64,000 nt of DNA from a bacterium (lineage in GTDB: Bacteria; UBA8248). The position numbers and the translations under genes are program-made. Every line of letters begins with the position of its first letter. The first letter of the stretch is position 1. The stretch spans positions 192,001 to 256,000 of the forward strand of contig CBDATS010000015.1 of the NCBI GenBank assembly GCA_965200245.1, written 5' to 3'. Shown in pieces: positions 28,357 to 53,914 of this stretch. The notes beneath the pieces were generated by a model. The model was not told where the DNA came from, searched no databases, and saw only the letters and a list, made by a program, of their open reading frames with translations.

Positions 28357-28755
28357 ATGGGTAGTCTTCGACTCATCGTCGGCTTGATTCTGGCGTTGGC
28401 GATTTCAAGCTTTGGCGTCATCAACATGAACCCGGTGACTGTCGCCTATTATCAGGGTTCCATCAATTTGCCTCTTTTCTATGTTCTTCTGGTGGTATTT
28501 GCATGCGGGTTCATGGTGGCTTGGCTTGGTGGCACCTTGGATAGATTGAAGTTCAGAAACCAAATCGTAAAATTAAAGCGCGAAGTAAAGACGTTGGAAA
28601 GCAATTTGGGTAAAGCACGCAAGAAAAGTGGCAAATTCCTTCCCATGGGCAATCCAGATACAGATGATTCGGCAAATACGGGCCATGGGCGCGCGTCAGA
28701 AATCAATCCCAAATCCGAAATGAGTCTCTCACCCCGCGAATCAAGGGCGGAGTAG
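28357..28755 (+). CDS. lapA: LapA family (lipopolysaccharide assembly protein A) membrane protein
   Basis: Two TM helices around F...N...V.V.Y.....LPL, followed by basic coiled coil KLKREVKTLE. Confidence 0.75.
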   Translation: MGSLRLIVGLILALAISSFGVINMNPVTVAYYQGSINLPLFYVLLVVFACGFMVAWLGGTLDRLKFRNQIVKLKREVKTLESNLGKARKKSGKFLPMGNPDTDDSANTGHGRASEINPKSEMSLSPRESRAE

Positions 28756-31439: not shown

Positions 31440-31543
31440 AGGAACCTATAGGCAACATAACAAACAGTGTGGTTTCGTTTGAAAAAGCCTTGAAAACTCA
31501 TCCCATTGCAGGTTTTCTTATAGGATAGTACTGAATTCTTAAA

Positions 31544-32164
31544 GTGGCAGTAGAAAATATGTTATCTAAAGATCAGAAATCATTTGTTTTGAAAAAATCG
31601 ACCATATTTATCTATCTGTTCTTCGCCTTGGTGGGACCTGTATTTTCCGCAACCGATGGCCAGGATGAAATTCGGATGAAAGATATAGTTGTGGTTGAAA
31701 AAAACGAGGAATTATTGGTTTTTGGATTGCTCTTGGGTGCGTTTTCACCAAAACTACTGGAGGCCATCCATAGTGGAGTGACTACCAAATTCAGTTTCGA
31801 ACTTAGTCTGATCCGTTCCAGAAAGTTGATCTATGATTTGGAAGTATCCTCCCGGCAACTGGATCACCAGGTGAAGTATAGCGCGTTGAAAAAAACTTAC
31901 ACTTTCCACTTGAAAGAGGATGCGAAAGATATCAGGCGCAGGGTAACAGAGAGCCAAGGTGAAATGATGGATTGGATGCGCGAGTTGAATGGTGTGCCCA
32001 TTGCCTCTCGTGAGCTATTGTCCCCAAATGGTCTATATTATGTCAAAATCAGAGCGCGCTTGAATCATGTGGATTTTGTTTTTCCGTTTAACTACTTGCT
32101 TGCTTTTTGGGGCAAGAAGTCTGACTGGAGCTATTCCCGGACATTTAGTTCTCAAGGAATGTGA
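31544..32164 (+). CDS. Exported DUF4390-like protein
   Basis: Signal peptide-like N-terminus; EAIHSGV...F.F...L, VKY..L...Y and YYVKIRARL patterns; usual position upstream of ntrY. Confidence 0.7.
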   Translation: MAVENMLSKDQKSFVLKKSTIFIYLFFALVGPVFSATDGQDEIRMKDIVVVEKNEELLVFGLLLGAFSPKLLEAIHSGVTTKFSFELSLIRSRKLIYDLEVSSRQLDHQVKYSALKKTYTFHLKEDAKDIRRRVTESQGEMMDWMRELNGVPIASRELLSPNGLYYVKIRARLNHVDFVFPFNYLLAFWGKKSDWSYSRTFSSQGM

Positions 32165-32167
32165 GTT

Positions 32168-34429
32168 GTGGATTCAAATAGTCAGAAAAGTCTAGACATT
32201 TCATTGTGCCGACGAAGAATCCTTTTGCGATCGTTGTTCGCTTTAATCGTTATAGCGACTCTTTCTTTCACGACTTGGATATATTTCGAAGAACTTGAAC
32301 CGGAAGTTCCCCTCCTCAACAATGTCGTCATATTTGCGCTTATAAACTTGAGCATCATTCTGCTCATGGTAGTTATTCTCCTGGTGGCGAAGAACCTGGT
32401 GCGTCTTTATTACGAAGGAACAACCGTCGGGCGTTCACGCTTGCAATTAAAGCTTGTGTTGGCATTTGTCGGATTTACGCTCATTCCTGCAGTGGCTCTT
32501 TTTGTCGTGGCTAGTGGCTTGATTAACCAGAGTTTTAATGCTTTGTTCAACATGAATGTAGAGCGTGTGCTTAAAGGGTCATTCGAGGTGGCTCAAACCT
32601 ATTATCGAGAGGTGGAGCGAAACGCACTATTCAGTGCGAGTCGACTTGTACTTAAGTTGGAGAAGACACGTCCTGACAAATTGGAAAATCCCAAGGCAAT
32701 CGAAAAAATACTGGAGTCTGAAAGAAAGGACTTGGGGGTGGATTTCATCCAGTTCTACGATAGGGATAGGAAGGAGATTGTATCGGTCAGGCGGCCGGGA
32801 GTGGAGTCATCCTCCAGGTTCTCGCCACTGGTGGGATACGTGGAACAAGTAATCGGTGGGGAATCACATTCAAGTATAGAAAGCTGGGAAAAAGGCGATG
32901 TCATCTATGGCGTGTCGCCACTGAAGGTTCAAAAAAAAGTGGTGGGGTTTGTTGTTGTTTCTAAATTTGTGCCTGAAAATTTAGTTGCAAAGGTAAAAAG
33001 CATATCGGACTCTTTTGTGAATTACAAAGAATTGGAACTCTCCAAGAATCCAATCAAAGCGAACTACATCATCACTTTTTTGGTTGTCACCTTGCTGATT
33101 CTGTTTGCCGCCATTTGGTTTGGATTCTATCTGGCTCGCGGCATCACGGTTCCGATCGAAAAATTAGCGGAAGCTACGAGGGCGGTATCAGAGGGCAACC
33201 TGGAACATCGTGTTGATACACATGCGGGTGACGAGGTGGGAATTTTGGTTCGCGCATTCAACAATATGACAGAGGAGTTATTGGCCAACAAGGAGAAAAT
33301 CGAAGAATCTTCGGAGACCCTTCGCCGCTCCAATCTGGAGATAGACAGGAGGCGAAGGTATATGGAAGCGATGCTCGAAAATATCGGAGCCGGTGTGGTA
33401 TCAATCAATCGACGTGGTCGCATTACCATCCTCAACAAAGCAGCTGGAGAATTGCTGGGCATTGAGCCTCATCGTGCAGTAGGGCGAATGTTCAGCGAGG
33501 TTTTTGAAAACACGCACCTCGAACCGGTTCGCCAGTTGATGCGTTCGATGAGGGGAAAAAACCACCAAAGCGCATCAAAGCAAGTGGAAATCATGATTGA
33601 CGGGCGCGTGCTCACGCTGCGCGCGAGTTTGACTCTGCTCAATAGTGCGGATGGGGGCCGTCTTGGAGCTGTTATTGTGTTTGATGATATGACCGCCTTG
33701 ATACGTGCCCAGAAAGTGGCTGCATGGCAGGAAGTGGCTCAAGGTATCGCGCATGAGATCAAGAATCCACTTACGCCGATCCAACTGTCCGCTCAGAGGA
33801 TGAGAAGAAAATTTGAAAGTGAAGCGTATGATTTCGAGGAAGTATTTGATTCTTGTACGGATACCATTATTAGCCAGGTGACGAGCCTGATTGAAATGGT
33901 GGATGAGTTCAGTCGATTTGCTCGGATGCCGGAGCCGAGATTGAGGTTTTGCGCGTTTGTACCACTAGTCGAAGACGTGGCGAATTTATATCGTGGCAGG
34001 AAGGGGTCGGTGGAATTTTCCATTCAAATCAACGCGGTGAATACAGCGGTCATGGCGGATCCCGAGCAATTACAGCGTGTGTTCATGAATTTGCTGGAAA
34101 ACGCTTTCGAGTCCCACAAGTTTGGGGGCGTGGTCGATTTGCAAGCATGGAGCGATCAAGACAGGCATATGATAGTCGTTGAGGTCGCTGATCAGGGGCA
34201 GGGCATATCGGAAAACATGAAGGGGCATATATTTTCGCCATATTTCTCCACGAAAAATAGAGGCTCTGGGTTGGGTTTGGCCATTTGCCAGCGAATTTTA
34301 GCGGATCACCATGGAACGATAAGCGTCCGAGACAATCATCCTGTGGGTTCCATTTTTCGTGTCACATTGCCGTTGGCACCTGCTTCGGGTGTCCCGCCCC
34401 AAAAACAAAGGATGGCTTCGATTGGATAA
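32168..34429 (+). CDS. ntrY: NtrY-like membrane sensor histidine kinase (TMs, periplasmic domain, HAMP, PAS, HisKA, HATPase)
   Basis: AAWQEVAQGIAHEIKNPLTPIQLSAQR, NLLENA, DQGQG, FSPYFST, GSGLGL; HAMP DEVGILVRAFN. Confidence 0.9.
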   Translation: MDSNSQKSLDISLCRRRILLRSLFALIVIATLSFTTWIYFEELEPEVPLLNNVVIFALINLSIILLMVVILLVAKNLVRLYYEGTTVGRSRLQLKLVLAFVGFTLIPAVALFVVASGLINQSFNALFNMNVERVLKGSFEVAQTYYREVERNALFSASRLVLKLEKTRPDKLENPKAIEKILESERKDLGVDFIQFYDRDRKEIVSVRRPGVESSSRFSPLVGYVEQVIGGESHSSIESWEKGDVIYGVSPLKVQKKVVGFVVVSKFVPENLVAKVKSISDSFVNYKELELSKNPIKANYIITFLVVTLLILFAAIWFGFYLARGITVPIEKLAEATRAVSEGNLEHRVDTHAGDEVGILVRAFNNMTEELLANKEKIEESSETLRRSNLEIDRRRRYMEAMLENIGAGVVSINRRGRITILNKAAGELLGIEPHRAVGRMFSEVFENTHLEPVRQLMRSMRGKNHQSASKQVEIMIDGRVLTLRASLTLLNSADGGRLGAVIVFDDMTALIRAQKVAAWQEVAQGIAHEIKNPLTPIQLSAQRMRRKFESEAYDFEEVFDSCTDTIISQVTSLIEMVDEFSRFARMPEPRLRFCAFVPLVEDVANLYRGRKGSVEFSIQINAVNTAVMADPEQLQRVFMNLLENAFESHKFGGVVDLQAWSDQDRHMIVVEVADQGQGISENMKGHIFSPYFSTKNRGSGLGLAICQRILADHHGTISVRDNHPVGSIFRVTLPLAPASGVPPQKQRMASIG

Positions 34430-36554
34430 GGGACATGTCCTCATCGTCGATGATGAGCCTGAAATTCTCGCGAGTCTGGAAGGTGTTTTGCAAGATGAAG
34501 GCTATCGCGTAGAGCAGGCGGATTCTGGTGAATACGCTCTTCATCTGATCCGAACCGAAACCCCGGATGTGGTTTTAGTTGACATATGGATGCCGGGAAT
34601 CGATGGGATTAAGACCTTGCAAGCGGTCAAAAGTTTGGATGCGTATGTTGAAGTCGTTGTGATGTCAGGACACGGAAGCATAGAAACTGCCGTTACCGCC
34701 ACAAAATTGGGAGCCTTCAATTTTATTGAAAAACCTCTTTCCATCGATACAGTTTTGCGCATAGTCGATTCTGCTGTTCGATCTCGAAAGTCTAAGGAGT
34801 TCAAGACAAGTGCGGTAGCCGGTATGATGTTGGATGGCACCAGTAAAAGTATTCAGACAGTCCGAAAAACTATCCGGAGAGTTGCTGGAGAAACTGGTCC
34901 CTTGTTGGTAGCAGGTGAAAGAGGAACCGGCAAGCGATTTATTGCAAGGGTAATTCAAAAGAACAGCCTTGGGCCAGAGCGGGACTTCAGACCTGTTCAT
35001 TGCCGATCGCTATTTCCCAAAACAGAGAAAAAACAATGGAAAGAAACAATCGCGAGGCTTGTGCCCGATACATTTCAGGGCGTGGTATATCTTGATGGGC
35101 TGGAACATGTGCCGGTGGCGGAGAGAGAGACTCTGCTATTGCAACTGATCAAGTCTCTGAACGATTCGATGCGGTTAATCATATCCTTTGCTCATGTCGG
35201 TGCTTCGAGGGACAAAACCTATGTACGAACTTTGTCTGCAAACATTGGTGCTGATGTAATACATTTGCCCTCCTTACGCGAACGCAGAGCAGACATCTTG
35301 CCATTGGCCAATAGGTTTTTGGCTGAATGCGTCGAAGTGGGTGGGAACGAAAAGGAATTCTCCGAAGATGTTGTTGTGCTTCTGAAAGAATATGATTGGC
35401 CGGGCAATATCGCGGAACTGAAAGGGGTGGTGACCAATGCGGCGTATGCATCGAAAGGAACGGAGATTCGCATTGGGCACATGCCGCATTTCGTACGAGA
35501 GACTTCCGCTTTTGGTACGGATGCATCGGAGGACACAACGCCTTCGAATTTTGATATGGCCAGAACCCAATGGGAAAGACAGTATCTCACCTTTCATTTG
35601 GAGGAGAACGGCTGGAACATCAACAAAACCGCAGAAGTGGTTGGCATGGCGAGGTCTGTCTTAAAGCGGAAAATCAGATTATATAAAATCAAGCCGCTAT
35701 CATCTGTGCCAACTAAGCTGAGAGCGGCGAGCCAGCGGAGTATTTCGAAGAGTGTCGTGCTGTATGGTCGGGGGCTTCATTCAGGATTGAAAACTGGTTT
35801 AATCATTGAGCCCATGCCTCTGGGAAGCGGGATTCAGTTCGGCAACCTGACAAGCCCTGACATCGTGAAAGCGAATATCGATTTCGTGGATGGAACCAAC
35901 CATGCGACCAACTTACGAAACGGAGCGGTGACGGCTCGAACGATTGAGCATCTCATGAGTGCGCTGCATGCATACAAGATCAGCAACATTCTCATAAAGT
36001 TGAACGAGGAAGTTCCCGTCATGGATGGGTCGGCAGTGGAATTTTGTCGCTTGCTTGAAGAGGCAGGCATTGAGACTCAGAAAGAAAACCGCGAAGATTT
36101 ATGGGTTGATAAGGTTTACGAAGTTGGTGATCCGGATGATGAGAAGGGCTGTATTCGCATTGAACCGTCGGATTCTTTCTCGATTTCATATCTCTTGGAT
36201 TACCCTGATCCGATTGGGAAACAATCTTACTTGTATGAACACAAAAATGCATTAAGTTTTCAGGAAGAAATCGCACCGGCTCGTACGTTCGGTTTTGTAT
36301 CGGAATTGGAAGCGCTCGAAAAAATGGGGTTGGCCGAGGGAGGTCGATGGGACAACGTGATCCTCGTGGATAAGACCCGTGTCGTGAATACCCAATTGCG
36401 ATTTCCTGATGAGTTCGTTCGTCATAAAATTTTGGATATCATTGGAGATCTGTATTTAATCGGTAGGCCGATTCGAGGCAAAGTAACCGCCGAAAGGAGT
36501 GGTCATCGGCACAATGTCGCTTTAGTCAAGAAACTAATAGAAGCCCATGGCTGA
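34422..36554 (+). CDS. lpxC: Fusion: NtrX-like response regulator (REC, degenerate AAA+, Fis HTH) plus C-terminal UDP-3-O-acyl-GlcNAc deacetylase LpxC
   Basis: REC: LIVDDE, DIWMPG, MSGH, FIEKP. Walker A GERGTGK; YDWPGNIAEL; HTH GWNINKTAEVVGMARSVLKRKI. From 35733, LpxC: QRSI..G.GLHSG, TIEHLMSAL, EVPVMDGSA, EIAPARTFGF, LRFPDEFVRHKILDIIGDL, SGHRHN. No internal stop; TTG start 34422 overlaps the kinase stop. Confidence 0.92.
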   Translation: MDKGHVLIVDDEPEILASLEGVLQDEGYRVEQADSGEYALHLIRTETPDVVLVDIWMPGIDGIKTLQAVKSLDAYVEVVVMSGHGSIETAVTATKLGAFNFIEKPLSIDTVLRIVDSAVRSRKSKEFKTSAVAGMMLDGTSKSIQTVRKTIRRVAGETGPLLVAGERGTGKRFIARVIQKNSLGPERDFRPVHCRSLFPKTEKKQWKETIARLVPDTFQGVVYLDGLEHVPVAERETLLLQLIKSLNDSMRLIISFAHVGASRDKTYVRTLSANIGADVIHLPSLRERRADILPLANRFLAECVEVGGNEKEFSEDVVVLLKEYDWPGNIAELKGVVTNAAYASKGTEIRIGHMPHFVRETSAFGTDASEDTTPSNFDMARTQWERQYLTFHLEENGWNINKTAEVVGMARSVLKRKIRLYKIKPLSSVPTKLRAASQRSISKSVVLYGRGLHSGLKTGLIIEPMPLGSGIQFGNLTSPDIVKANIDFVDGTNHATNLRNGAVTARTIEHLMSALHAYKISNILIKLNEEVPVMDGSAVEFCRLLEEAGIETQKENREDLWVDKVYEVGDPDDEKGCIRIEPSDSFSISYLLDYPDPIGKQSYLYEHKNALSFQEEIAPARTFGFVSELEALEKMGLAEGGRWDNVILVDKTRVVNTQLRFPDEFVRHKILDIIGDLYLIGRPIRGKVTAERSGHRHNVALVKKLIEAHG

Positions 36555-38335: not shown

Positions 38336-39067
38336 TTGCTTAAGCTAAGTTGCTGTATATCGATAGTTGGATTTTCATTTTTCCTTTCTTTGCATTTCTT
38401 CGTTCCCGCGGTATCGCAGGGGGGAGAATCGCATGAGGAAGCGGAGAAAATAATCGCTGCACTCCAGAAAAAATATGAAGCCCTGGAATCTTTGCAAGCC
38501 GCATTTGAACAGAAAAATGAATTGAAATCCCTTGGACGAACAACGAGGTCAAAAGGTCACCTTTCCTGGAAAAAGCCCGGAAAATTGCGCATGGAATATG
38601 TCGAGCCGGAAAGACAGGTTCTGGTCTCTGATGGTCGCTCGTTTTGGCTTTACACGGCTCGCCTGAAGCAGGTGATGGTTTCCAGGAACGGGGGCTTCGG
38701 TTTTGGTACCACCCCTTTGTTGTTCTTGTCGGGTAAGGGAAATCTGAAGAGGAATTTTTTTGTGGCAGTGGAAGAAGTTGGAATTGCCAGACGAAGCGGA
38801 GGAATCTGGAAAGCTGGGCAGCCTCATCGCATTCGCCTGGAACCAAGATCTACGGGTGCTTCGTTTCGTCGCATGTGGATAGAGACGGAGGCTGAAAATT
38901 TCCGAATCCTTACTTTGGCATATATTGATAATTTCGGTAACAAAAGTCACCTTCGGTTTTCAAATGTCAAAGAAAACGTCAGAATCACACAAGAGGAATT
39001 TAGGTTCATAGTGCCGCCAAATGCCGAAGTTCTCCAGATGCCGTCTCAGAACAATCAGCGAAAATAA
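38336..39067 (+). CDS. lolA: Outer-membrane lipoprotein carrier LolA
   Basis: Signal peptide, A.FEQ, KPGKLRMEY..P, VSDG..FW.Y, D.FGN, F.F..P. Confidence 0.85.
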   Translation: MLKLSCCISIVGFSFFLSLHFFVPAVSQGGESHEEAEKIIAALQKKYEALESLQAAFEQKNELKSLGRTTRSKGHLSWKKPGKLRMEYVEPERQVLVSDGRSFWLYTARLKQVMVSRNGGFGFGTTPLLFLSGKGNLKRNFFVAVEEVGIARRSGGIWKAGQPHRIRLEPRSTGASFRRMWIETEAENFRILTLAYIDNFGNKSHLRFSNVKENVRITQEEFRFIVPPNAEVLQMPSQNNQRK

Positions 39068-39081
39068 GGAATCATTCGAGA

Positions 39082-40278
39082 ATGGCAATGCAAATCATCA
39101 ACTGGGTGATGGGTTTTGGGCAGACGATTTTCTGGGCTGTGCTGGTTTTGGGGCTACTCATTTTTATCCATGAGTTGGGACACCACCTCGTCGCGAAATG
39201 GCTCAAAATCGGCGTATCTACGTTTTCCTTGGGTTTTGGTCGTCGTATCTGGGGTTTTCAGCGAGGTGAGACGGAATATCGTGTCTCTCTGATTCCCTTG
39301 GGAGGTTATGTGAAACTCGTAGGAGAGGACCCTGAAGTGCAGCCTGATAATCCTTCTGCACCCAGAGAGCCAGATGAGCCGGAAAAATCATTCTATTTGC
39401 GTCCTGTGAGCCACCGATTCGCGGTCATTTCGGCGGGACCGCTATTTAATGTCGTCCTCGCGATTCTCCTTAGTTGGGGTTTGCACATCTGGGGTATTCC
39501 TGTGCCGGGGACGTGGGTTGGTGGTGTATTGCTCAATATGCCTGCGCAACAGGCGAATCTCCAAACCGGCGATCATATCTTAGCTATTGATGGAAAGCAG
39601 ATTCAAAAATGGTCCGAACTCGTTGAAATTGTGCGGAAAAATGCCGACAACAAACTCGTATTTACAGTGGACCGCGATCGTAGAATTTTTGAAACGTCCA
39701 TTATCCCGACATCGAAGAACGAGGCGGGCAAAGATTTAGGTTATGGCCGAATCGGCATCAATATCGGTCAAGGCACCTACACTGAACGCTTTGGCCTCCT
39801 CGAATCCTTGGGCAAGGGGTTCGTGCAAAACTACCGCATTGCTAGCTTGACTGTCTTGACACTGTACTCGATGCTCACGAAGACCATTCCGGCGGATATC
39901 GGCGGTCCGATTCGCATTTCCGTGGTGGCCGCGGAGCAAGCGCAGCGCGGATTCCGTTATCTCGTCATGTTCACAATTTTACTGAGCGTTAATCTGGCGA
40001 TTCTGAACTTGTTGCCAATACCGGTTCTCGATGGAGGGCATATTTTTTTCTTGCTTATCGAAGGCTTGCGTGGCAAACCTATAAGCCTCAGGGTTCGGGA
40101 GATGGCTATGCAGGTTGGCACCGTGCTTCTCATTGGATTGATGATCTTTGCTACCTACAAGGACAGCGTGTATTATCTCTTCAGGAGCGAACCGGAGACT
40201 GTTATGAAAAAAGAAAATCAAGAAGAAAAGGTGAAGGACACCTCAAAACCAACTCCTGCGCCCTCAAAAAATGAATAG
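39082..40278 (+). CDS. rseP: RIP metalloprotease RseP
   Basis: HELGH, IPLGGYVK, AGPLFN, PDZ domain, NLLPIPVLDGG. Confidence 0.95.
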   Translation: MAMQIINWVMGFGQTIFWAVLVLGLLIFIHELGHHLVAKWLKIGVSTFSLGFGRRIWGFQRGETEYRVSLIPLGGYVKLVGEDPEVQPDNPSAPREPDEPEKSFYLRPVSHRFAVISAGPLFNVVLAILLSWGLHIWGIPVPGTWVGGVLLNMPAQQANLQTGDHILAIDGKQIQKWSELVEIVRKNADNKLVFTVDRDRRIFETSIIPTSKNEAGKDLGYGRIGINIGQGTYTERFGLLESLGKGFVQNYRIASLTVLTLYSMLTKTIPADIGGPIRISVVAAEQAQRGFRYLVMFTILLSVNLAILNLLPIPVLDGGHIFFLLIEGLRGKPISLRVREMAMQVGTVLLIGLMIFATYKDSVYYLFRSEPETVMKKENQEEKVKDTSKPTPAPSKNE

Positions 40279-45474: not shown

Positions 45475-47514
45475 TTGAATCAATTTTACAAGAATTTGGC
45501 CCTTTGGTTGATTATCGGGTTGATAATGGTGGGGTTGTTTCAGGCCTTCAATAGCCCACGCTCCGCCGACAAAACGGTTGTTTACAGCGATTTCCTGCAG
45601 GCGGTGTCCGAAGGTCAGGTGAGCGAGGTAATTGTTCAGGGAGACAATATTCGGGGTCGCTATCTTGGAGGCAGTTCTTTCTTCACACATGCTCCCAAAG
45701 ATCCGAAATTGATCGACACCTTGCGTGCACAAGGCGTTCGCATCACAGCGCAGCCTGTTGAACAAAACTCTTGGTATATTAATATGCTGTTGAGTTGGCT
45801 GCCGATGCTGGTAATGCTGGGTGTCTGGATTTTCTTTATGCGTCAGATGCAGATGGGTGGTTCGAAAGCCTTGTCATTCGGAAAAAGCAAAGCTCGAATG
45901 ATGCCCGAATCAGCAAAGAAAAAGATTACATTCGCAAATGTGGCCGGTATAGAGGAAGCAAAAGAAGAACTTGAGGAACTCGTCGATTTTCTCCGAGATC
46001 CGCAGAAGTTTACTCGCTTGGGCGCACGTATCCCGAAGGGTGTTCTCATGGTTGGCCCCCCGGGTACTGGCAAGACCTTGCTGGCGCGCGCCATCGCTGG
46101 GGAAGCGGATGTACCGTTTTTCTCTATCAGCGGTTCCAGTTTTGTGGAAATGTTTGTAGGAGTTGGAGCGTCAAGAGTTCGGGATTTGTTTGAGCAGGGC
46201 AAATCGAATGCGCCTTGCATTATTTTCATTGATGAGATTGACGCCGTTGGACGACACCGAGGCGCCGGGTTGGGAGGGGGCCACGACGAGCGTGAACAGA
46301 CGCTCAATCAGCTTCTTGTTGAAATGGATGGTTTTGAATCAAACGATGGGGTCATCCTGATGGCGGCGACAAATCGGCCGGATGTGCTGGACCCTGCACT
46401 CCTCAGGCCCGGTCGCTTTGATCGTCAGATTGTCGTTTCCTTGCCAGATATCAAAGGACGTCTAGCCATATTGAAGGTGCACGCCGAGAGCGTGCCCCTT
46501 GATGAATCGGTCGATTTGAATCTCATCGCGCGCGGAACACCGCGGTTCGCAGGCGCCGATCTAGCGAACCTTTTGAACGAATCCGCACTCCTCGCGGCGC
46601 GTAGGGGAAAACGCGCAGTTGAAAATGAAGACTTGATGGAAGCGAAAGACAAGGTCTTGATGGGCAAAGAGCGGCGCAGCATGGTTCTCAGCGAAAAAGA
46701 GAAGAAAAATACGGCCTACCACGAAGCGGGGCACGCACTTGCTGCGTTCTTGATTCCTGGCACGGATCCGGTCGAGAAGGTGACGATTATACCGAGAGGT
46801 TTTTCTTTGGGAAGCACATGGTCCTCACCACTCGAGGATCGCTATAGCAACGACAAAACATTTTTGACGAATCAGCTTGTTTGTCTGATGGGTGGGCGCG
46901 CGGCGGAAATGTTGGTTTTTGAGGAATTAACAACGGGGGCGAAGGCAGACATCCAGACGGCGACCGACTTGGCGAGAAGCATGGTTTGTGAGTGGGGGAT
47001 GAGTGAAAAACTCGGTCCTTTGGCGTATGGTAAAAAACACGAGCAAATCTTCTTGGGTCGCGAAATCTCCCAGCACAGGGATTATAGCGACCAAGTGGCG
47101 CTGGAAATCGATAACGAAGTAAAGAACATGGTTTCCTCGGGGTATGAGAGAGCATATAAATTGCTTGAGGAAAATCGGGACAAGCTCGATTTGCTCGCCA
47201 ATGCGCTGCTCGAATTTGAAACCATCGATCTCGAAGATATCGAATCCCTGATGGGGACCGGAGAGATTTCCAGGAATCGTAAGCGGAAAGAAGAAGTTGG
47301 CGAGGGAAACACTCCAGCATCTCCGCAACCGGCGGGAAAACCTTGCGAGGACCCGCAGGGATCTCCGCCTGACTTAGCGCCCGGCCAAGCCCGGCCAAGC
47401 CTAGTTTCTTTTTTCGATATATCATGTCATGCAGAATCGCTCTTCGGGTCAGTTGTTTCTGGGTCGAGAAGGCTCAAGCGACCTGGTGACCAATATATAA
47501 CTTTGAGAAAATGA
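45475..47514 (+). CDS. ftsH: ATP-dependent zinc metalloprotease FtsH
   Basis: Two TMs, [40 protein letters not shown]-terminus extended by a frameshifting duplication. Confidence 0.97.
47381..47400 (+). repeat. Perfect 10-bp tandem duplication CCGGCCAAGC x2
   Basis: Read directly at 47381-47390 and 47391-47400, followed by CTAG. Confidence 0.9.
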
Positions 47515-52471: not shown

Positions 52472-53914
52472 ATGGTATTGCAGCATAAACTGGCTATAAG
52501 ATCGGAGCAACGTCTCGTTATGACCGCCATGATGCGCCAAGCGATTGGCCTCTTGCCTCTAAATCGCTTAGAAATGCAGCAGGCCGTTCAGCAGGAAATT
52601 TTAAACAATCCTTTGCTAGAAGAGATTCAGAATGAAATCAGTGAAGTGGCTGATGGAGAGATGCCGGAAATGAGAAACGATGTTCCCGAGAACCAAAATG
52701 ATGAACGAGGCGACGTTGAAATCGATTGGGAAAATATTGTGCAGGGCAATTATGGTGAATTTGCTTATCCTGCCTCAGATGATGAGTTTCCTTCTCGTGA
52801 GCAGACTTTGGAGCGGACTGTCACCTTGCATGAACATCTGGAATGGCAATTGAGTCTTTCCATAGTTCCCGAACCGGTTGCAAGGGTTGCCGAGCAGATT
52901 ATCTGGAATATCAATGATGAGGGATACCTTGAAGCCGATGTGCAAGAGTTGGCGGACAATTTGGGCCTAGGGCTTTTCGAGGCGGAAAAGGCATTAGCTT
53001 TGGTGCAAGGGTTCAATCCAACCGGAGTTGCTGCAAGAACGCTTCAAGAATGCATTCTTATGCAATTGAATAATAATGATTTGCATTCAATTTACTGTTT
53101 GTCGATTTTAGATTTGGCGCGGGTTTTGGTGCTCGAAGATATTGAAAAAATCGGTGAACGGCAATATGCGAAACTCGCCAAGGCCAACAGCGTCGGGGTG
53201 GAAGATGTCTTTCAGGCGGTTCAAATCATTCAAAGTCTCGATCCTCGCCCGGGTTTACAATTTTCGCAGCAAAGAGTGGAGGTAGTGGCTCCTGATGTGA
53301 GCGTCACCAAGAGAGGTGATGATTATGAGGTAGTGCTCAATGACGATGGCCTGCCGCTTCTGCGCGTGAATTCTCTATATGCGACCATGCTGGCCGACAA
53401 AATGAATACTTCTTCCGAAACGCGGGATTATCTGGAAGAAAGGCTTAGGGCGGCTCAGTGGTTCCTCAAAAGTATTGAGCAAAGAAGGCAGACGATACTG
53501 AGAGTTTGCCGAAGTATTGTTCGCTTTCAAAAGGATTTTCTGGACAATGGAGTGAGTTGCTTGAAACCGCTGATTTTGAGGGAAGTAGCGCAGGATATCG
53601 GAATGCACGAATCGACTGTGAGCCGTGTTACAACGGACAAGTACATGGATACGCCGCAAGGCGTTTTGAATTTGAAGTATTTCTTCCATAGCGGGTTGGA
53701 ATCGAGTGCGGGGGAGAGCACTTCTTCGGTAGCGATAAAAGAAATCATCAAGAAAATGGTGGCACAGGAAAGTCCCGATGAGCCGCTCACAGACCAAAAA
53801 ATTGCAGATGGGCTCAAGAAGGAAAACGTGGCGATTGCGAGGCGAACGATTACAAAATACCGAAAAGAACTGCGAATTTCTCCCGCTGGCAAAAGACGGA
53901 AGATTCGGCTATGA
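52472..53914 (+). CDS. rpoN: RNA polymerase sigma-54 factor
   Basis: Gln/Leu-rich region I, NPLLE, HESTVSRVT, RpoN box ARRTITKYR. Start moved to ATG 52472. Confidence 0.95.
   Translation: MVLQHKLAIRSEQRLVMTAMMRQAIGLLPLNRLEMQQAVQQEILNNPLLEEIQNEISEVADGEMPEMRNDVPENQNDERGDVEIDWENIVQGNYGEFAYPASDDEFPSREQTLERTVTLHEHLEWQLSLSIVPEPVARVAEQIIWNINDEGYLEADVQELADNLGLGLFEAEKALALVQGFNPTGVAARTLQECILMQLNNNDLHSIYCLSILDLARVLVLEDIEKIGERQYAKLAKANSVGVEDVFQAVQIIQSLDPRPGLQFSQQRVEVVAPDVSVTKRGDDYEVVLNDDGLPLLRVNSLYATMLADKMNTSSETRDYLEERLRAAQWFLKSIEQRRQTILRVCRSIVRFQKDFLDNGVSCLKPLILREVAQDIGMHESTVSRVTTDKYMDTPQGVLNLKYFFHSGLESSAGESTSSVAIKEIIKKMVAQESPDEPLTDQKIADGLKKENVAIARRTITKYRKELRISPAGKRRKIRL

Follow-up and report, generated by a model that had tools for sequence, protein, structure and literature searches.

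An NtrX-like response regulator fused to the sole LpxC of a bacterial phylum suggests phosphorylation control of lipid A synthesis

The regulation of LpxC, the committed-step enzyme of lipid A synthesis, outside the Gammaproteobacteria is an open question, for which a 2025 review gives only fragmentary cases (PMC12444477). The closest described systems act on lpxC transcription. In Desulfovibrio vulgaris, lpxC is described as the single DAP-chip target of DVU2934, a sigma54 regulator that carries the GAFTGA motif (PMC3333781; PMC4641369), and the operon of the orthologous regulator in Syntrophobacter fumaroxidans has lpxC directly upstream of it (PMC3333781). In D. alaskensis, lpxC, which has a sigma54 site, is the only gene upregulated when the cognate kinase Dde_3000 is mutated (PMC4045070). 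Loss of NtrYX in Rhodobacter sphaeroides raises lpxC mRNA 8.8-fold and increases lipopolysaccharide (LPS; PMC7240162); the 2025 review gives a two-fold LPS accumulation and adds Caulobacter (PMC12444477). As published, the net effect of the kinase on lpxC in these unfused systems is negative under laboratory conditions (PMC7240162; PMC4045070). Here we analyze a 64,000-nucleotide stretch of bacterial DNA (the window; positions 192,001 to 256,000 of contig CBDATS010000015.1, assembly GCA_965200245.1, GTDB lineage Bacteria; UBA8248) in which an NtrX-type response regulator and LpxC are joined in one gene. Fusion of the sole gene for the committed reaction in making lipid A to a receiver suggests direct control of the enzyme by a sensor kinase through phosphorylation.

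The initial annotation of the window described an uninterrupted frame of ~710 amino acids (aa) from 34422 to 36554 with no stop at the junction. Both the list of open reading frames (ORFs) and the raw sequence bear this out, with a stop-free forward-strand frame spanning 34359/34422 to 36554. Initiation at the TTG at 34422, which overlaps the stop codon of the upstream kinase gene by 8 nucleotides (nt), gives a 710-aa protein whose length and start match those of the database copy P0002. The product is best explained as a single 79-kDa protein that combines the regulator with a catalytically intact LpxC and is the sole copy in the cell. The domain layout and the surrounding genes are listed in Table 1.

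Table 1. Fusion gene, its domains and neighboring genes, in window coordinates.
Feature	Coordinates	Strand	Evidence
Fusion gene, NtrX-type response regulator + LpxC (710 aa plus stop)	34422..36554	+	ORF list, raw sequence, Pfam
Receiver (REC) domain, residues 6-114	34437..34763	+	Pfam Response_reg, 102 bits
Decayed sigma54-type AAA+ domain + lid, residues 139-366	34836..35519	+	partial Pfam matches, 5m7n_A alignment, motif rows, GAFTGA regular expression
Fis-type helix-turn-helix (HTH_8), residues 383-419	35568..35678	+	Pfam, 27.5 bits (cut-off 22)
Unconserved linker, residues 420-437 (18 aa), predicted disordered	35679..35732	+	alignment, model
Complete LpxC deacetylase domain, residues 438-706	35733..36539	+	Pfam, 279 bits; TIGR00325; solved-chain alignment
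DUF4390 (PlrP-like), predicted periplasmic third component of NtrYX-family systems	31544..32164	+	Pfam PF14334, 94 bits
NtrY-type histidine kinase (NtrY_N, HAMP, PAS, HisKA, HATPase_c)	32168..34429	+	Pfam
LapA-domain gene	28357..28755	+	
LolA gene	38336..39067	+	
RseP-type M50 protease gene	39082..40278	+	
FtsH gene	45475..47514	+	
Sigma54 gene	~53426..53902	+	Sigma54_DBD, 202 bits; 544-aa frame (G000:C15:245426-245902)

The LpxC domain is complete. It matches PF03331 at 279.4 bits (cut-off 27) over model positions 1-267 of 268, beginning at residue 438, which places its start at 35733 as first annotated, and its score of 236.4 bits exceeds the cut-off of the LpxC equivalog TIGR00325 (187.25). 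Residues 437-706 match LpxC chains from P. aeruginosa, A. aeolicus, and E. coli (E ~1e-47), and the motifs E-H, H-K-I-L-D...G-D, G-H, and A-R-T-F-G-F align with these solved chains. The catalytic and zinc residues that the initial annotation had recognized (E509, H510, T622, H668, K669, D672, D676, and H695) are all present and are invariant or nearly so among 108 aligned full-length homologues; F623 aligns with the solved chains alongside T622. The fusion is the single LpxC locus in the genome (3.68 Mb, 95.8% complete), where a second lpxC, which had been proposed as a check, is absent, and LpxB and LpxD are encoded in the same genome. On sequence grounds, the fused LpxC is the pathway's housekeeping deacetylase. 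It resembles canonical LpxC (TIGR00325, PF03331) in its full-length domain, its full set of metal and catalytic residues, and its status as sole copy alongside LpxB and LpxD, but differs in having no initiator methionine of its own, 437 signaling residues ahead of it, and no C-terminal tail, and in belonging to a separate clade marked by 14 signature positions. The other catalogued LpxC fusion, LpxC/FabZ (NF009667), shares the LpxC half but carries a C-terminal pathway enzyme rather than an N-terminal signaling module. FabZ is absent here, and NF009667 matches the LpxC half only (positions 3-220 of 464; 214.8 bits, cut-off 465). NCBIfam contains no model specific to a regulator-LpxC fusion, and database names of the fusion proteins are automatic, reading either "UDP-3-O-acyl-N-acetylglucosamine deacetylase" or "NtrX". 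The initial annotation knew of no characterized receiver-HTH-LpxC protein, and we found no description of a receiver-LpxC protein, nor any paper on LpxC as an output domain, in open-access papers or bioRxiv; the words "fused", "fusion", and "response regulator" do not occur in the 2025 review of lipid A regulation (PMC12444477).

The chain stops four residues after the LpxC domain ends at residue 706. In 70 fused frames, which include a few repeats of a gene already counted, 0-10 residues follow the domain, compared to 4-67 in 28 standalone frames. In E. coli, FtsH recognizes the C-terminal end of LpxC as a degron. The receiver might serve as a phosphorylation-dependent degron or adaptor site, such that the signal sets the half-life of LpxC rather than its catalytic rate and replaces the FtsH tail. 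The tailless ends of the fused enzymes fit such a switch, as do the proteolytic control of LpxC described for several proteobacteria (PMC12444477) and the FtsH gene 9 kb downstream, although the latter is universal. We nevertheless consider it unlikely, and no protease adaptor was identified. A search for LapB with a Pfam zinc-ribbon model returned no match in the genome; the model is unspecific and matches 10 of 14 control genomes, including Gram-positives.

The receiver contains the phospho-acceptor D54, the acidic pair D10/D11, and K104, and all four are invariant or nearly so in the 108 aligned homologues, in agreement with the initial report of intact phosphorylation residues. Likewise, 43 sequences of a shorter form that joins REC to LpxC (REC-LpxC) show no variation at the LpxC catalytic residues or at the receiver's phospho-acceptor Asp, acidic pair, and Lys. 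The AAA+-like region and the Fis-type helix-turn-helix (HTH) of the initial annotation are both present, but the decay of the AAA+ domain had been overlooked. Its Pfam matches are weak and partial (Sigma54_activ_2, residues 139-285; Sigma54_activat, 139-197; AAA_lid_14, 286-366), and PF00158 covers only model positions 3-61 of 168, so there is no full Sigma54_activat domain. Walker A reads GERGTGKR, whereas Walker B reads LDGL in place of the LDEV of NtrX and has lost its Glu. The segment that bears GAFTGA in sigma54 activators is replaced, and the loop is absent. The protein thus lacks both the GAFTGA motif and the intact Walker B of sigma54 enhancer-binding proteins of the NtrC class. A sigma54 gene lies ~17 kb downstream of the fusion, so sigma54 is present even though the fused regulator is without the contact loop.

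The best solved-structure match for residues 5-419 is chain 5m7n_A (E 9e-48), which we take to be Brucella NtrX. NtrX (NF051870) is also the best NCBIfam regulator model, at 240.4 bits against an equivalog cut-off of 600. The REC domain, the GAFTGA-less AAA+ domain, the Fis HTH, and the NtrY neighbor are all as in NtrX, but the score falls short; by its sequence, the N-terminal part is NtrX-like and not an NtrX equivalog. This likeness, together with the NtrY and DUF4390 genes upstream, was missed in the initial annotation, as was the fact that the architecture is common and not unique to this genome. DUF4390 is the domain of PlrP, which is proposed on genetic grounds in a 2026 J Bacteriol paper as the periplasmic third component of a subset of NtrYX-family systems (PMC13001219). 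The window module is therefore PlrP/NtrY/NtrX-like with LpxC added, and it shares with NtrX systems, PlrP-PlrS-PlrR included, the domain set of the regulator and the upstream NtrY and DUF4390. NtrYX also has a published link to lpxC expression and the cell envelope. Unlike NtrX, the window protein carries a C-terminal LpxC, has lost the Walker B Glu, and has a shortened segment between Walker A and Walker B.

The initial annotation called for confirmation by reads across 35650-35760. Contigs from four runs span the junction (~35679-35732) with 0 differing letters and no insertions or deletions: a 41-kb contig (X2) and a 284-nt contig covering 35521-35804 (X4) from DNA runs, and contigs covering 35625-36098 (X6) and 35331-35844 (X7) from RNA (metatranscriptomic) libraries. 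The RNA-library contigs show that the junction is open but are no proof of a single transcript. A search for the REC + LpxC architecture, also suggested at the outset, showed that it is common. All 120 clusters listed in the database search carry LpxC, at 39-100% identity; among these listed clusters, 108 are at least 680 aa long with the same domain set, seven are ~445-aa REC + LpxC proteins, and five are shorter pieces. The same Pfam set recurs in a 381-member cluster of the ESM Atlas, in which Nitrospinota is the commonest phylum. The fusion could still be unreal, either as an assembly or frameshift artifact or because an internal start yields two proteins, and an in-frame GTG (V444) does lie 15 nt 3' of a GGAG. 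More than 100 independent assemblies have the same open frame at 40-78% identity, however, and the contigs of four runs bridge the junction without differences. No ATG, GTG, or TTG with a good Shine-Dalgarno sequence precedes the invariant Q438, consistent with the earlier failure to see an obvious one before the LpxC part. Initiation at V444 would cut off the invariant Q438 strand, and we rejected an internal start as the source of the main product. The artifact explanation is already largely refuted and we regard it as scarcely credible.

To place the fusion among its relatives, we surveyed LpxC in 51 genomes of the phylum. Fifty have an LpxC match, and 45 matches cover the whole domain: 34 in frames of 700-755 aa, nine in frames of 432-538 aa, and two (356 and 646 aa) in frames cut by contig ends, which were rejected as free-standing LpxC on that account. 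No free-standing LpxC was found among these 45 complete-domain matches. In five of the remaining genomes the match is partial at a contig end or interrupted by a frame break, and one (93% complete) has no match. The frames of 432-538 aa are REC-LpxC proteins, in which a basic, low-complexity linker of ~50 aa joins a complete receiver to LpxC and both AAA+ and HTH are missing. This short form is widespread and occurs in Nitrospinota, Acidobacteriota, Thermodesulfobacteriota, and other groups. One short form from the window's genus (P0054, gene in L014) retains an HTH remnant and is thus a deletion derivative. In one genome of the same genus, the LpxC match at G028:C19:33661-34399 (L123) is split between different frames, with one piece covering model positions 1-203 and the other 199-244. 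At locus L034 the regulator and AAA+-LpxC parts also occupy separate frames; both could be frameshifts or assembly errors.

In a wider scan, which took one genome per species and used an alignment of 25 distant fusions as query, the 80 returned loci were classed with our own hidden Markov models. REC-LpxC accounts for 32 loci, from Thermoanaerobaculia and Holophagae (Acidobacteriota), Binatia, Syntrophorhabdus, Desulfocapsaceae (including the isolate Desulfopila sp. IMCC35006), Nitrospirota, Myxococcota, Oligoflexales, and others, while the full fusion accounts for 14, from Thermodesulfobacteriota (including Desulfomonile and Syntrophaceae) and Nitrospinota. A separate regulator with a separate lpxC within 4 kb upstream occurs at 20 loci; the rest comprise an apparently broken copy (1), regulator only (3), and LpxC only (10). 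Pfam confirmed REC + LpxC in all eight correctly framed outgroup genes. Five of these genomes were checked for further copies: the fused gene is the only LpxC in one Holophagales and one Syntrophaceae genome, and an extra canonical LpxC accompanies REC-LpxC in Desulfopila, one Nitrospirota metagenome-assembled genome (MAG), and one Myxococcota MAG. The initial annotation also raised the idea of a trigger enzyme, in which occupancy of LpxC by substrate or product feeds back on the receiver or HTH to alter transcription or kinase signaling. It is suggested only by the presence of an enzyme together with an HTH in a single chain. With HTH-less REC-LpxC proteins outnumbering full forms 32 to 14 and the sigma54 activation machinery decayed, the idea is weakened rather than supported, and we consider it very improbable.

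We next examined how fused and standalone enzymes are related using a maximum-likelihood tree of 90 LpxC domains, built by a quick method with a midpoint root for drawing only. All 61 fused domains lie on one side of a branch with an SH-aLRT support of 100, and all 29 standalone domains, 16 of which come from operons with a related two-component system, lie on the other. Full and short forms interleave on the fused side. The short-form label needs six changes, at least four of them forced by well-supported branches, which indicates that the AAA+-HTH part was lost (or, less plausibly, gained) several times while REC was kept.

The 20 unfused loci are arranged in the order lpxC, DUF4390, NtrY-type kinase, regulator. 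Pfam verified this order in five of them, from Acidobacteriota, Methylomirabilota, Desulfuromonadales, and "delta proteobacteria", one being without a DUF4390 ORF, and the regulators of these five are full sigma54 activators (PF00158, 235-252 bits). By regular expression, a GAFTGA-type loop is found in 17 of the 20 unfused regulators beside lpxC versus none of 19 fused full-length proteins. Seven of the 20 loci carry a sigma54-type -24/-12 pattern, in each case at lpxC or slightly upstream of it and with no second match in the 4.2 kb; by our own arithmetic ~0.5 chance matches are expected over the 84 kb scanned, and many loci come without the region upstream of lpxC. Compared through published descriptions rather than by sequence, DVU2934/Dde_3003 and Dde_3000 of Desulfovibrio likewise form a dedicated two-component system for LpxC, and the window's unfused relatives are also of the sigma54 type, in an lpxC operon with sigma54-like promoters. 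The Desulfovibrio systems, however, are transcriptional and consist of separate proteins with GAFTGA intact, whereas in the window the enzyme is fused and GAFTGA is gone.

These observations lead us to favor, as somewhat more probable than its negation, a phosphorylation-controlled LpxC in which an NtrX-type regulator fused to the sole enzyme provides post-translational two-component gating. The DUF4390/NtrY sensor would phosphorylate D54 of the receiver, and the phosphorylation state of D54 would set the available LpxC activity through conformation, oligomeric state, or stability. Entry into lipid A synthesis would then be gated post-translationally by a two-component signal and not by C-terminal-degron proteolysis of the E. 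coli type. The fusion would derive from a dedicated system that controlled lpxC transcription through sigma54; after the fusion, the sigma54 function would have decayed, and AAA+ and HTH would have been deleted altogether in many lineages. The analysis shows directly the architecture and its conservation, the sole-copy status, the synteny, and the fact that GAFTGA and the tail are gone. Phosphotransfer from NtrY, as well as any effect of phosphorylation on LpxC and the sign of that effect, we infer. Functional coupling of receiver and LpxC can be argued from the sole LpxC across the phylum, the retention of REC after repeated loss of AAA+ and HTH, and the loss of the sigma54-contact loop. Likewise, a move of control from transcription to the LpxC protein would account for a sole, intact enzyme with an invariant receiver and a retained kinase, the loss of GAFTGA and the Walker B Glu, a DNA-binding part that is repeatedly lost while the receiver never is, and the missing C-terminal tail. 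The wider proposition, that outer-membrane biogenesis is here under proteolysis-independent post-translational control through an enzyme captured by its own sigma54 regulator, whose transcriptional machinery then decayed, is more tentative, and we hold it slightly less probable than its negation.

Several points weigh against the phosphorylation-controlled enzyme. No result or model shows the receiver touching or altering LpxC. AlphaFold monomers have confident domains but low-confidence linkers (pLDDT <50 at residues 427-434) and modest pTM values (0.60 and 0.69 for the full and short forms), so no fixed arrangement of REC and LpxC is predicted. Long linkers that lack conservation, and that in short forms consist of basic, low-complexity sequence, suit a tether more than a rigid allosteric link. 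Full-length forms still conserve the HTH core, so a transcriptional role may persist. The tree was drawn by a quick method with a midpoint root only, and its loci were sampled through two peptide patterns and similarity to a fused query and are not an unbiased sample of LpxC. A complex prediction of REC (residues 1-125) with LpxC (435-710) gave a score of 0.01 (mark 0.32) and was run with no controls; it counts neither way. In the models, a long helix follows the receiver (residues 108-137 and 109-128 of the full and short forms), which resembles the linker helices of NtrC-class regulators. A phosphorylation-dependent change in dimerization would be a reasonable guess from these models.

The conserved HTH also bears on a purely transcriptional coupling, in which the NtrX part would be a DNA-binding regulator of the sigma70 type, for example one that autoregulates a DUF4390-ntrY-fusion operon, while LpxC is a constitutively active passenger present in proportion to the regulator and phosphorylation affects DNA binding only. 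Full-length forms retain an HTH_8 match and an HTH core (W384, H392, L393, T403, A404, and L414) conserved at ≥90% in the 108 full-length homologues, and for residues 5-420 NtrX provides both the closest solved structure and the best NCBIfam model. Both NtrYX and the Desulfovibrio system act on lpxC transcription. Moreover, a sigma70-like promoter is conserved upstream of DUF4390: in the mutS-DUF4390 intergenic region (31440-31560; L107-L120), a genus-conserved element reads TTGAGA ... TAGCAT in relatives and TTGCAG ... TAGTAC in the window, where the spacer is 3 nt shorter. Inspection by eye of 16 genus-level sequences upstream of DUF4390 found only these -35/-10 elements conserved, with no sigma54 promoter and no palindrome shared with the window, and no sigma54 -24/-12 pattern occurs between 28000 and 36600 of the window. 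Regulation by DNA binding alone nonetheless appears doubtful to us. Many HTH-less REC-LpxC proteins keep an invariant phospho-acceptor site, the persistence of the fused receiver after independent deletions is left unexplained, and no conserved operator-like palindrome is apparent, by eye only, in the window's intergenic region.

Response regulators whose output is an enzyme are well known and include the methylesterase CheB, the GGDEF proteins PleD and WspR, and the HD-GYP protein RpfG. These consist of an N-terminal receiver, a flexible linker, and an enzyme, which is exactly the layout of the short REC-LpxC, but their outputs are signaling enzymes, whereas LpxC is a metabolic enzyme of an essential biosynthetic pathway. 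Receiver-enzyme fusions are thus already known; what is new is that the output is LpxC, in an arrangement that supplies the only copy throughout a phylum and arose from the enzyme's own transcription regulator. If the phosphorylation-controlled reading is true, a core biosynthetic enzyme joins the response-regulator outputs, and sensors of the NtrY/DUF4390 type gain a concrete envelope output, in line with the envelope phenotypes described for ntrYX mutants (PMC7240162). With the regulator physically attached to LpxC in a whole clade, the question of its regulation becomes testable with one purified protein. The gene family also contains an evolutionary series, from a separate sigma54 regulator in an lpxC operon, through a fusion with a decayed activator, to a minimal REC-enzyme, and offers a clear example of control shifting from transcription to protein.

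The gene order MutS-DUF4390-NtrY-fusion-PurM-PurN is preserved in relatives, including those with short forms. The likelier start of DUF4390 is the ATG at 31559, which is conserved among genus relatives. By Pfam scan, an NtrY-type kinase lies directly upstream of the fused gene at all five short-form and all four distant full-form loci examined. Two Acidobacteriota genomes whose REC-LpxC is kinase-less both encode a DUF4390-NtrY pair elsewhere with no adjacent regulator, and Desulfopila, which has kept a canonical LpxC, has an intact DUF4390-NtrY-regulator trio. Two genomes (n=2) give no more than a hint that orphan REC-LpxC has NtrY as its partner. In one Holophagales genome (L127; G052:C3, ~4008590-4010380), the gene that comes after the orphan DUF4390-NtrY pair encodes a Ser/Thr protein kinase in place of a response regulator. 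Envelope-related genes surround the operon in the window, encoding a LapA-domain protein, LolA, an RseP-type M50 protease, and FtsH.

Three contigs with bacterial-type genes carry unexpected labels and are probably mis-binned: a 3-kb contig labeled Promethearchaeota archaeon with a full fusion (L025), one labeled Enterobacteriaceae with a REC-LpxC that groups with Binatia and Myxococcota (L074), and one labeled Methanobacteriota archaeon with NtrY and a regulator (L089). A divergent REC-LpxC sub-clade (L084, L086, L087, L088, L090, L092, and L094) comprises Desulfocapsaceae and Desulfoprunum together with Nitrospirota, Myxococcota, Oligoflexales, and Pseudomonadota MAGs. Its LpxC motifs are altered (GLLSG, an insertion of ~10 aa, ARSFNTFE, and TSHG), no kinase is adjacent, and all three genomes checked also encode a canonical LpxC. 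This sub-clade may act on a different substrate.

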